Assembly: GCA_020137815.1 (NCBI GenBank)
Contig: CM035362.1
Coordinates: 4,030,001-4,094,000, forward strand
Length of the DNA stretch: 64,000 nt
Direction: 5' to 3'
From: Hormiphora californensis
Taxonomy: Eukaryota; Animalia; Ctenophora
Made by a program: the position numbers and the translations under genes. The notes under the pieces were generated by a model. The model had not been told where the DNA came from, searched no databases, and saw only the letters and a list, made by a program, of their open reading frames with translations. Positions 41,301-53,300 of the stretch are shown here, piece after piece; within the stretch, counting starts at the first letter, position 1, and each line of letters starts with the position of its first letter.

Positions 41301-44300
41301 CCCGGTGGTGGAGCGGGTGGGAGGGCTGCCTGCTGCTCCATCACGTGAGTTAACCTAACTTTCAGCGTAGTACAATGCTCCTGAATAATTAGTTAATTAG
41401 TTGATAATTAACTGATAATAGTTAATTAGCTGATTAGTTAATAATGGGAGCGAGTACCATTTCAGATTACCTGGATTCGCTCCTCCAGTTTCTGAGCTGC
41501 TTCACCGGGTGTGTCACGGACGTGGGTGCTGGCACTCAACTCGCACTGTGCACACACATCTTCACAACCAATTGAACTGTAATTAGAAGATTTTATTGAT
41601 AACTGTTTTGATAAAGGAGTAAATGTTTTGATAAAGGAGCAAATGTTTTGATAAAGGGGGGGGGCCAAGGCCAAAAAAAGCCAGATCAATCCCGGATTTT
41701 AGGGCGGGTCTGGCTTTTTTTGGCTTTTTTTGGCCCTACTTTTTTGGTCATTTTGGCATGTAATTCTGACATTATATGGTCTGTTTGACATCAAAAACAC
41801 TTTAAAATGGCTTCTTTGATCTAGTTTTATCATTTTATATCGATAGGGAAATATTTTTTATACCGAAAAAAGTTTGATATAAAAAAAGCCAGATCAAAAA
41901 AAGCCAAAAAAAGCCAGATCAAAAAAAGCCAAAAAAAGCCAGATCAAAAAAGGCCAAAAAAAGCCAGATCAAAAAAAGCCAGATCAAAAAAAGCCAAAAA
42001 AAGCCAGATCAAAACTGCTAAATCAAAAAAAGCCAGATCAAAAAAAGCCAAAAAAAGCCAAAAAAGGCCAATAAAAGCCAAAAAAAGCCAGATCAAAAAA
42101 GGCCAGATCAAAAAAAGCCAGATCAAAAAAAGCCAAAAAAAGCCAGATCAAAAAAAGCCAAAAAAAGCCAGATCAGACCCGGATTTCAGGGCGGGTTTGG
42201 CTTTTTTTGGCCTTGGCCCCCCCCCCCCATAAAGGAGCAAATATTTTGATAAAGGAACAATTACCTGTTTTGATAAAGGGGCAAATGTTTTGATAAAGTA
42301 GCAAATGTTTTGATAAAGGAGCAATTACCTGTTTTGATAAAGGAGCAATTACCTGTTTTGATAAAGGAGCTTCTCAAGCCACTCACTCCAGAATGTTCCG
42401 GGGTGTTGGTGAACAAAGTATCGCTTGAAACAGGAAACAAGAGAACCGTATGGTTTTAGGGCACGCAACGCTGTCACTGTTGCTGTTCGACCTATAAAAA
42501 CACATTGTGAATGAGGAAAACGGAAATTAACATCATAACAATCGGACCCCGATTTACCGGGGAGAAAGAGTTCTGCCCGGTAAACCGGGGCCCAACTATA
42601 ATACCATGATTATGACTTACGGGCAGCAAGAGCAAGATTTATCTCCGCATCCACGGCCTCATTTTGGGTCACCAGATCCCCCTGGCCGGTGGAGTTTAGG
42701 AACTCTAGAGCGGGAAGGTAGGACGGAGTATCCTCCGGGTGAGGGGAGGTAGAGTTACTGAGCTCACCAATCAGTGTTTCAAGAACGTTACCTGCGTGAT
42801 TTATATAAAGTTTTATAAACTTTTTCAAACTTTTCAACACTACTTTAAACAAATTAATTTGAGGATCCGTTTTGCTGCCCCTCGCTAATCCTTCTGAGAC
42901 TTCTGTTTATCCCTCTCCTTAAAGAAAAGACAAGAGAAGACGTGTCTGGTTTTTCTAAGTAAACAGATCTCAGAGGACCTCGTTGGGTTATAACCAAGGA
43001 CGCCAAGACTTGCTAGGAACGGTTCCTCGCGCCTCTATTTACAGGACAGGATGTCGGGTGTGGCTACCCATGATGTTATAATGTGCAGGAACGATATGGA
43101 GGGTAAGTTGCTCGCCACGAGCTACTCTGATAGATGTAAGGGTGCCAGTATTTTGCAGAGCATTAAGGATGATGCAGTGGAGCCTCCAAGTGGAGCTTCC
43201 AAAGCGGTTTTATGGACGATGGTCAAGGAACTATATGGATTGTTACCTGAAACACGGCGCATCTCTACCCACTCATCTGAATCTGTGACATCATTCACAG
43301 CTGAAGACTTGAAGGATACACTGGATAAGCTGAAAGAGGATCTTCTGAGCACACTACCGGATCTGGTTGCCCCCAAGGTTAGCAAGATCTTAGCTCCTGG
43401 CAGTGACCAATTGGCTATACACGCTGTGAATCGCATTGGCTCAGCACAGGAAACTGTGACACCTGTGACTCCAATTAAGAGGTATCTGACTATCAAGGAT
43501 AAAGGTGAGGAAGGACCTATGTGTGAGAAGAAGTGGACTACTGTCGTTAAGACAAAGGTGGAGAAAGCATTGAATAAGATTCCAGTCCTAGATCTTTCAG
43601 TCACCAAGAGGAGGACAAATCTTATGTTTGAGACCGATGAACAGTTGGAACAGGCGAAAGAAGTTCTTTCACCGTTCCTTGATGTTTCTCCTGTAGTAGA
43701 GAAGGAGAAGAAAAGAGATCCTCGCATCATGATCAATGATCTTGACCAGGACCTGCTGGAAAAAGATCGCCTTCTGTCAGAGATTGTCAGTGATAAGAAT
43801 GAGTCTGTGAAGAGACTAGTTGAGGAGGGTCACCTGGTGAAGGTGGTCCATGTAAACAGAACAGGAAGATATGCAGTGTTCCAGGTCTCTCCAGAAGGAT
43901 TACCTACAACTATGGCTCATGCAACTATGGCTCATAAAATCTATGAGCCATAGATGCATGCAACTATGGCTCATAGATTTTATGAGCCATAGATGCATAC
44001 AACTATGGCTCATAGAAATGTGATCTGATTAGGTTCTATGAGCCAAAGCTAGTGAGAGTGAGTGACACGTGAGTGACACGTGAGTGACACGTGAGTGACA
44101 TGTGAGTGACACGTGAGTTTTCGAATCATGTAATATTAAATGAGCACAAATGTAAACGATTTACATAATGATAAATCTAATATTACATAATTAAAATTAC
44201 ACTATCAGTTCATCTTGGATATAATGGTAACAGGGGTCCTTCTTTGGACAGTTCATAGAGCATTTCATGTGAATCAGCAGCTCCTTAACACGATGTTTAT

Positions 44301-50300: not shown

Positions 50301-53300
50301 CAGTATATTAACCGTTCAGATCATCCTTCAGTGACAGTAGCAGTTCCGCTGCTCTGTCCCTGTCGGATATGGGCGGAATATAAACATAGTTATTATTATT
50401 ATTATTATTATTACAACTGTAACACTGTAAGTGCTGCACTTCGATAAAAACGGGACTTCAAATACGAGCTCTATTCACCTTCAATGAATTCCAATATTGC
50501 CCTGAATTTGTTATGTTGGGTTTTATACTCCTCAGCGGCTAGGTTGACTCGTTTGTGTAGTGTGGTATGGGCTGTTCTGTGGGCTGCCTGGGCCTCCACA
50601 CTGCAGGATAGAGGGTTATTTTGTTAATTTCTTGTAAATATATTGGGGAAATATATTCGACCGGTAAATAGAGGTACCGGTTCCATTTTCAGCAGGAACC
50701 GACCGAAACAACCAATCAGAACTCGTTATTTAGGTCACGTGACTGGTTATCAGCCAATCAGGGACCAGTATTTCCTGATTCGGTCGGTTCCATTTTCAGT
50801 GGTTTAGGTACCTCTCTTGTAGAGCCCACAGCATGTGATCCGGATCATGTTTCAGTTCATGTAACAACCTCTGTCTCGCTATCACATTGTTAGTGTTATC
50901 CTCATGAGGGATCAGTCGAGAGAAGGAATCGGAGAAGGTCCGTAGCACCTTGAGGAGGCCACCAATTGAGACTGAAAGATAGGAATATCCTTAGAAAATG
51001 AGACATTGGAGGACTAGAAAGGGGTTGGAAGACTAGAAAGGGATCGAAAGAAACTCAAAAGGGAGAAGATAATCACCACCAAAAAACAAATCAAAAGATA
51101 TTCACCGGTAAAAGAGTTTTTGTTAGTTTTCAGTGAGACATTTAGCTCGACGATTCTGCACGATAGAAGGGAGTAAAGACTTTCGATCTCCAATTCTTTC
51201 CTGTTAACTGTACCATCTTTAACAACATCCCCAAACACCCCTGAAATAAATACCGACCGTGATTATATATACAGGAACCGACCGAAACAAGTAAACAACC
51301 AATCAGAACTCGTTATTTAGGTCACGTGATTGGTTATCAGCCAATCAGGGACCAGTTTTTCCTGATTCGGTCGGTTCCTGATAATACAATGGGGTAATTT
51401 CTCCATGCTCTCAGTGACATAATAAAGTACACCTCTTCCAATCCGATTTGGACCGGTTTGGACCGGCAGGATTGAGGGTCGTACCAGCAGCAGTAGTTCA
51501 CCCTACTATTAGGATAGCCTAGAGTACCCGGGTGATTAACCTTTATCTACCCAACCCTCACGGCTCACAGAGTGTATGTGCTGTGTGATTCACCTTCATC
51601 ATTTCCACTCAATCAGAGGATCATACAGGAAGTTATGATTAGGTTACTATTGGCCTAGTAGTAGGCCAATCATATGACGTTGTGAAATGGAACTAATTGA
51701 TCTAAAAGCGATTCCACTTCCAGGGCACTCCAATGGGTCTCTACAACCACCAAAAAAATTTACCGCAGGTACCGCGATGGAGAAATCGGTCATTTCCGGG
51801 TTTATTTTGCACCTGCATAAAGATAGCCTAGGACGAATGCGATATACGGTAAAAACCGTCTTTGGAAACAAGTAGAAAAGAAATCAAGGGCACTAAAGTG
51901 TGTAGCGTCCTCGCATTAGTGGGGGTAGGTGCTGGAATTAAGTCTCTATCTTATCACGTTAATTAGATAATTGGATAATTAGATGCGCACATAGCCGTTT
52001 TATGGTTATACGGTAAAAACCATCTTTGGAAAGGAGTAGAGAAAATACCGAGGGTACTAGAGTGATCAGCGTCCTCGAGTTAGTGGGGGTAAGTACCCAA
52101 ATTAAGTTCCTATCTCATCGTGTTAATTAGATAATTGGATAATTAGGTATGCGCATAACCGTTTTTAGGTTACATGGCTATAGCCACTTAGGAATGGTTT
52201 AGAGACTTTTCATTGGTGCCATTTTGTAGGCAATAGCCAAGTTATGGGGGGTCGAAGTCGGACTTTTAAGCTCTATATTCAACCATTTAGCCGTTATATG
52301 GCTTTAAAGGTGCTCAAAATCGGTCTTTTTACCGCTTTTTTGCTCATTTTGAGCACCTTATATGACAAATAACGGCTAAACGGTTGAATATAGAGCTTAA
52401 AAGTCCGACGTCGACCCCCAATAACTTGGCTATTGCCTACAAAATGGCACCAATGAAAAGTCTCTAAACCATTCCTAAGTGGCTATAGCCATGTAACCTA
52501 AAAACGGTCATGCGCATACCTAATTATCCAATTATCTAATTAACACGATGCGATAGGAACTTAATTTTGGTACCTACCCCCACTAATTCGAGGACGCTGA
52601 TCACTCTAGTACCCTCGGTTTTTTCTCTACTCCTTTCCAAAGATGGTTTTTACCGTATAACCATAAAACGGCTATGTGCGCATCTAATTATCCAATTATC
52701 TAATTAACCTGATAAGATAGAGACTTAATTCCAGCACCTACCCCCACTAATGCGAGGACGCTACACACTTAAGTGCCCTTGATTTCTTTTCTACTTGTTT
52801 CCAAAGACGGTTTTTACCGTATATCGCATTCGTCCTAGCCTATATTTATGCAGGTGCAAAATAAACCCGGAAATGACCGGGGGGGGGGGGGGGTGATATG
52901 TACTTAGTATGTACCTTCATCATTTGCACTTGTCCACTCAATAAGTGGGTCATACAGGAAGTTATTATTAGGTTACTATTGGCCTAGTATAGTAGAGTAC
53001 CCGAACTAGGGGGTGATCTACCGGGTGAGCGGACTCTAGTGCTAAAATCACGAAAAGCGAACTCGAGATTTTGGCCGTTAGGCCGGAAACGAGAGTTTGC
53101 TGTGCCTCTATACTCGTTTAGAAGTGTTAGGGCTGTTATTTGGGTTAGAGGTTAGGGGTTAGTGTAAAGGTTAGGGTTAGATATAGAGTCCTCCTTGGGT
53201 TTAGATATAGAGTCCGCTAGCACTAGAGTCCGCCCACCGATCTACCGGGGGGGGGGGGGGGGGGGGGGTGATATATGTACTTAGTATGTACCTTCATCAT

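Follow-up and report, generated by a model that had tools for sequence, protein, structure and literature searches.

After reverse transcription a LINE (long interspersed element) must rebuild its 5′ end, and two answers are familiar: internal promoters, or read-through transcription combined with a self-cleaving ribozyme (R2). A LINE of the ctenophore Hormiphora californensis, at 42823–50413 (+) of the window analyzed here (the whole 64,000-nt stretch at positions 4,030,001 to 4,094,000 of contig CM035362.1, assembly GCA_020137815.1), raises the question of whether trans-splicing can do this work, for it begins with 41 nt that an earlier sequence-only reading of the window took to be the host's spliced leader (SL). 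That reading proposed that the LINE RNA had been trans-spliced and copied nearly to its cap, and that the integrated leader could regenerate the same 5′ end from any read-through transcript. The SL head is a real, lineage-wide feature and not a one-off; the window LINE and its relatives very probably derive from SL-trans-spliced RNA, an origin that the junctions described below support well. Renewal of the leader in each cycle at the old leader's own AG is a further step, towards which the comparison of junctions and flanking sequences leans on balance. The parts of the element and of its 5′ junction are:

42809..42822, + strand: leader-like echo or A/T palindrome at the 5′ junction
42823..42863, + strand: last 41 nt of the SL exon, up to the donor; the element starts here
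42864..43050, + strand: 5′ untranslated region (UTR), 187 nt, without ATG, pyrimidine-rich; candidate acceptors include 42898, 42966 and 43044/43049
43051..43897, + strand: 5′ part of open reading frame 1 (ORF1), 282 codons, interrupted by an insertion
43898..46619, strand not applicable: non-coding foldback element of 2722 nt nested in the LINE, its long inverted arms 96–100% complementary
46622..47071, + strand: 3′ part of ORF1, 149 codons, three Cys/His knuckle-like motifs
47026..50000, + strand: ORF2, APE endonuclease and reverse transcriptase (RT), overlapping the end of ORF1
50001..50389, + strand: 3′ UTR
50390..50413, + strand: (ATT)n tail, 3′ end, with no SL intron sequence after it

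The identity of the 41-mer as the ctenophore SL was borne out: it equals the 3′-most 41 of the 44 nt of the published H. californensis leader (available text of PMC8527503), and also the leader of a putative SL RNA gene in a metagenome contig (L022). A 22-nt leader pattern, searched with at most three mismatches, matched once in the whole window, at 42823–42863, where 0.01 matches were expected by chance. The junction falls exactly at the SL donor, as had been read, with GATCCG after the leader in place of the GTAAGC of the SL gene; similarity to the 778-bp unit that carries the SL and 5S rRNA genes is limited to the leader and one further G. The distance of 187 nt from leader end to ORF1 was likewise correct, the ATG lying at 43051. 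In its available text, the genome paper counts 718 leader copies in Hormiphora (110 Mb) and 491 in Mnemiopsis, blames mapping artefacts for shared first exons, and draws no link with LINEs (PMC8527503). At 718 copies in 110 Mb, a same-strand leader at most 200 nt upstream of a given ORF1 has p ~6.5e-4. The partial echo reported just upstream is present at 42809–42822; it proved to be a short palindrome of A and T, no more stably folded than shuffled sequences (z −1.2), and may stem from the target site or from slippage at the start of copying. Folding of leader plus UTR was also no better than that of shuffles.

Metagenome contigs scanned with a 29-nt stretch of the leader yielded 34 loci: seven two-ORF LINEs of the APE type, three loci with ORF1-like genes, one SL gene array, and 23 mRNA-like loci in which the leader stands at the contig end and the first ATG follows it by 1–41 nt. 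Six of the LINEs (L003, L007, L008, L015, L021, and L034) are relatives of the window LINE, with 29–53% identity over the 5′ part of ORF1, and three of these (L007, L008, and L015) have two open ORFs each; in the seventh, L020, an ORF1 unrelated to that of the window is followed by an APE domain. The frames of L016, L031, and L032 gave no Pfam retroelement match and no endonuclease match and are counted as ORF1-like only; those of L016 and L032 are 27% identical, and Atlas leads among the three were FP25K-like (0.87) and PHD (0.91). In the array, L022, two leader copies are each followed by GTAAGC within a 778-bp tandem unit that alternates with a 5S rRNA gene; the SL stretch folds stably (z −3.9), an Rfam search of L022 found no family matching the SL RNA itself, and the unit is taken as a putative SL RNA gene. 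Viral contigs and genome contigs searched with the leader pattern gave 0 matches, and a search of viral contigs with the ORF2 N-terminus gave three pattern matches and no relative.

The junction stands at the donor in 11/11 elements (the window LINE and ten others), and from the donor back the match to the L022 SL gene runs for 35–43 nt with no mismatch, 6–14 nt of each match lying outside the 29-nt search pattern. At its 5′ end the leader lacks 0–8 nt, and 8/11 heads reach 41–43 nt; that of L015 has the same 5′ extent (43 nt) as those of the mRNA-like contigs L013 and L023. The upstream flanks of the 11 elements show no likeness among themselves or to the SL/5S unit, and the UTRs form groups that cannot be aligned to one another, with the leader unchanged throughout. 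The objection that a single copy would be a one-off event therefore fails, since the same head is found in divergent families at unrelated sites. Flank of 17 nt or more precedes the leader in eight contigs, seven retroelement-like and one the SL gene; recognizable host-gene retrocopies number 0/8 in this small, repeat-biased sample.

Elements of the SLACS/CRE and NeSL groups carry a restriction-like endonuclease and are located in SL genes. In them the leader abuts the 5′ end of the element, as in the ctenophore LINEs (PMC4640811, available text), and insertion at the exon end of an SL RNA gene would likewise place a perfect leader before a LINE; GT does follow the leader in L015 and L021. The ctenophore LINEs, by contrast, have APE, unrelated sites and truncated leaders: upstream DNA of an SL gene was found in 0/11 flanks, the 3′ flanks of the window LINE and of L015 differ from the SL intron, and no restriction-like endonuclease was found. 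Because 11/11 heads are donor-exact and their flanks are unrelated, SL gene insertion is excluded, and an explanation of this kind, largely refuted by the flanks, is scarcely credible. The same facts make chance proximity or template switching very unlikely. An insertion beside a stray leader, or a one-off switch of template to SL RNA, could draw on the hundreds of leader copies in such genomes, and no empty site appears among the flank contigs, which stop at or before 42817 in the runs examined (an allelic flank contig of run X1 extends to 42817). The low probability of even the single case, the ten further cases, and the fact that a template switch would not end at the donor each time leave this explanation highly improbable; assembly chimeras are unlikely for contigs with 17–461 nt of unique flank.

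How the head persists is a separate question. A constant leader beside UTRs that cannot be aligned, together with near-complete leaders in 8/11 elements, favors renewal in every cycle; and if SL-headed copies seed further copies joined at the identical point, splicing must use the AG of the old leader as acceptor. In such a cycle, a transcript would begin somewhere upstream of the integrated copy; trans-splicing at this AG would supply a fresh capped leader, restoring any bases lost at insertion and leaving the junction the same; and the SL-headed RNA would be translated and then reverse-transcribed almost to its cap. ATG is absent from 7/7 long UTRs, where 2.6–4.2 (base shuffles) or 0.9–2.7 (dinucleotide shuffles) were expected in each, which fits a translated RNA of leader, UTR, and ORF1.

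The family is also present in sequencing runs. Six runs contain at least half of the element's 5′ kilobase, and 4 of the 24 listed runs were mapped; RNA runs, with 0.08–0.16 of the words, were left out of the evidence. In X1, depth is about 124 on each flank allele (247 for both) and reaches 7466 on one UTR contig; with the two flank contigs taken as two haplotypes, the UTR is kept at about 30 loci per haploid genome. In two of the four mapped runs, X3 and X5, a 158-nt variant contig with 11 differences joins leader to UTR, with 26 and 21 nt of leader. Many contigs pass from the leader into other sequence at 42863 (24–29 in three runs, agreement ~0.4), and contigs also run into it from elsewhere at 42823, as a large number of dispersed leaders would lead one to expect.

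A number of observations weigh against renewal at the old AG, or limit the data behind it. The leader's final GAG is atypical; host-gene candidate acceptors, judged by eye, are CAG or TAG at 12/13 printed exon starts and GAG at none, the 13th being no exon start. Most families have a canonical acceptor downstream whose use would shorten the element: TTTTAG/GATG (cut after AG) in L003, L007, L008, and L034, TTACAG/GA (cut after AG) in the window LINE and L015, and TTTYAG immediately behind the leader in L016, L020, and L032. The second acceptor named by the sequence-only reading, at 42966, is indeed an AG, one of 15 in the 5′ UTR of the window LINE, where the candidates at 43044/43049 directly precede the ORF1 start codon. 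AGs are not significantly scarce in the first 20–35 nt of the long UTRs (p 0.05–0.24 each). The main group of elements retains 145–215 nt of 5′ UTR, which a purely passive cycle could shed by way of a better acceptor downstream. The window LINE likely sits antisense in an intron of a gene for a PIKK-family kinase, and in that orientation the host gene provides no sense read-through. The contigs of X3 and X5 that join leader to UTR fall below the 31 nt on the leader side that the tool's bridging standard requires; one contig of depth 12, in which the leader meets the AG at 43007, is a hint of a movable junction, but joints of this kind carry the tool's warning of unreliability. Because the loci were picked for bearing the SL, a 5′ end that lacks it had no way of turning up, and assemblies of low coverage are biased towards repeats; the scan therefore does not tell what proportion of copies carry a leader or what proportion of leaders stand at the head of a LINE. 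The absence of ATG from the long UTRs is a weak test under dinucleotide shuffling; about four independent lineages stand behind the seven UTRs, and few ATGs occur in antisense either (three in all).

These facts also bear on the promoter-independent life cycle that had been proposed, which is unsupported so far: the UTRs are kept, the leader ends in GAG, and the window copy likely lies antisense in its host gene. The persistence of long UTRs despite shortcut acceptors suggests that they have some role, for which a promoter is the obvious candidate, and promoter independence is therefore not adopted; pure read-through is a less likely source of transcription than promoter activity within the UTR or in flanking DNA close by.

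Two other accounts accept the trans-spliced origin and dispense with renewal at the old AG. A few hidden master copies might keep a promoter and an outron before an ordinary acceptor, the SL-headed copies being mostly dead ends and unspliced RNAs renewing the masters. This would yield an always-current leader without any need for a GAG acceptor, and Cer1 of Caenorhabditis elegans does have a trans-spliced short RNA beside an unspliced long RNA (PMC3315495, available text). No loose end at 42864 was seen among the best 24 of 318, which speaks weakly against such masters, for one master in about 30 copies would be a low-depth contig and could lie outside those 24. The contigs of L008, L015, and L034 have the leader at their start, with the break only a few bases before it, as would be expected if SL-headed copies dominate (flank before the leader is 6 nt in L008, 5 nt in L015, which also has flank after its tail, and 1 nt in L031). 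Hidden masters seem rather unlikely. Alternatively, the leader might have been added once or a few times and then inherited as DNA, serving as initiator or promoter while unspliced RNA is copied and a downstream acceptor takes part in ordinary trans-splicing. Retained UTRs and downstream acceptors suit this account, as does a GC-box-like motif (CCGCCCC/CCACCCC) conserved across the short-UTR group; SL relics of dinoflagellates have been proposed as promoters (PMC5585692 and PMC12014239, available text), and LINEs of the Tx1-Mar group and SINEU elements with U1 or U2 heads exist (Kojima, 2015, PMC4494074, available text). An inherited head is hard to reconcile with 0 substitutions in the matched leader at 11/11 junctions across unrelated ORF1 types, or with the 8/11 that reach 41–43 nt: a head that was not renewed would erode through repeated end loss, and junctions that differ between groups point to repeated additions. 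This second account is given a similarly low probability. There are hints that the junction can shift. L031 shares a UTR motif with L016, L020, and L032 and lacks the TTTYAG found behind their leader, which its lineage may have used as an acceptor, in this one case.

Several known systems share parts of this pattern; the published sources for them are cited here from their available text. In flatworms, 597 discarded loci had partial leaders at LTR or LINE repeats, and the authors suggest, in a passing remark, that transcripts of retrotransposons had been trans-spliced and then integrated (Calvelo et al., 2025, PMC12582326). Leaders are thus tied to mobile elements there too, in another phylum and, in that text, without junction analysis, family test, or life-cycle model. 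In dinoflagellates, a DNA-encoded leader marks reverse-transcribed mRNA, and re-splicing at AG as well as a promoter role has been proposed (PMC5585692; PMC12014239). The dinoflagellate cargo consists of host genes, and tandem relics arise when re-splicing uses an inner AG, whereas in the ctenophore the cargo is a retroelement and a second leader end within 200 nt was found in 0/23 mRNA-like contigs (a small, repeat-biased sample). The Tx1-Mar LINEs and SINEU resemble the ctenophore elements in a recurrently added head, derived from small nuclear RNA (U1/U2), with promoter unknown (Kojima, 2015, PMC4494074); unlike theirs, the ctenophore head ends precisely at a splice donor, a position that indicates splicing. 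Transposon RNAs gain SLs at the RNA level in Hydra, where about 30% of transposable-element long reads have an SL (PMC12220107), and in C. elegans, where the long GAG-POL RNA of Cer1 is not trans-spliced (PMC3315495). No report of SL-headed LINE families in ctenophores was found in the literature searched, most subscription papers and Repbase reports lying outside the search.

An origin from trans-spliced RNA has thus been hinted at before, and the additions made here are the lineage-level pattern in an animal, the renewal model, and a new reading of the ctenophore leader copies. Trans-splicing by the host spliceosome would be a further solution to the 5′-end problem, here as a trait of whole animal LINE lineages. 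A stronger form of this proposal is possible, if doubtful: several ctenophore LINE lineages and their ORF1-only derivatives would have abandoned a 5′ end of their own, a capped full-length RNA being rebuilt from any transcription upstream by trans-splicing at the leader left in the previous round; they would need no promoter and could not erode, and most of the 718 Hormiphora leaders would head such elements and not be SL genes or mapping artefacts. SL-headed LINEs offer a simple test for the unexplained leader copies of both Hormiphora and Mnemiopsis, and the leader flags full-length insertions, which would aid repeat and gene annotation. Public genomes and long reads allow the lineage-level pattern, the renewal model, and the new reading of the leader copies to be put to the test immediately.

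The short-UTR loci show two further features. L016, L020, L031, and L032 share, despite distant or unrelated ORF1s, an upstream ORF of 1–4 codons that lies within 50 nt after the leader and ends just before the CCGCCCC-like motif. L032 has, at 462–1620, an SL head, an ORF1-like frame alone, and an (AAT)n tail behind a short 3′ UTR, and is likely a non-autonomous ORF1-only retroelement. T-richness in the 12 nt after the leader (0.41 in the 11 elements, 0.22 in the 23 mRNAs) was set aside, the elements being related.

The window LINE itself is about 4.9 kb long once the foldback insertion is discounted. It has the marks of an APE-type LINE: an ORF2 with APE and RT (Pfam Exo_endo_phos, 1e-13; RVT_1, 2.5e-29), an upstream ORF1, and a simple-repeat tail. 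LINEs of the CR1 group (L2/Crack/Daphne-like) have two ORFs, APE and RT, a microsatellite tail, and no clear target duplication, and the window LINE presumably belongs with them by its anatomy; no target-site duplication was found, the longest word shared by its ends being 5 nt. An SL head is not known to be a feature of this group. The homologue search gave 4122 homologues, the best 120 of which have no clade names, and the RT part is 95% identical to copy P0001. The two ORF1 pieces align to the open ORF1s of relatives, and the zf-CCHC_6 match in the 3′ piece is weak, below the Pfam cut-off. The description of the element as a full-length young LINE holds for its length, and the element is close to other copies; an intact young element was not confirmed, ORF1 being split and ORF2 having one frameshift near 47960–47972, and this copy is full-length yet dead as it stands.

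The foldback insertion is bounded by a 9-bp target duplication (43889–43897 / 46620–46628), a length that we assume to be Mutator-like, and other copies of the LINE run uninterrupted across the site (run X8, loose end at 43877). The inserted element contains inner inverted repeats and swapped arm segments; like a second foldback element at 51787–52879 it has long near-perfect arms, and the two have a common 65-nt segment (72–77%).

In the surroundings of the LINE, ORFs submitted to Pfam were without match in 47/48 cases. The host gene, probably SMG1-like by its motifs, likely extends on both sides:

32360..59827, − strand: host PIKK-family kinase gene; kinase exons at 53575–59827, likely terminal exons at ~32360–33040

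A degenerate LINE at 1551–4756 (−) is related to the window LINE (28–42% over pieces of ORF2) and has no leader match nearby. At 20194–21882 (−), adjoining 20-bp tandem arrays, a single ORF of 562 amino acids has a Walker A-like GGGGTGKT and no Pfam match at 0.01; it is presumably a STAND-NTPase-like protein. A Cys-rich, secreted-looking protein of 174 amino acids is encoded at 13746–14270 (−), with a weak three-finger (Ly6-like) Pfam match below the cut-off. A short dispersed repeat, present at 50706–50791, 51293–51378, and many other sites, forms a false exon in gene model P0121.

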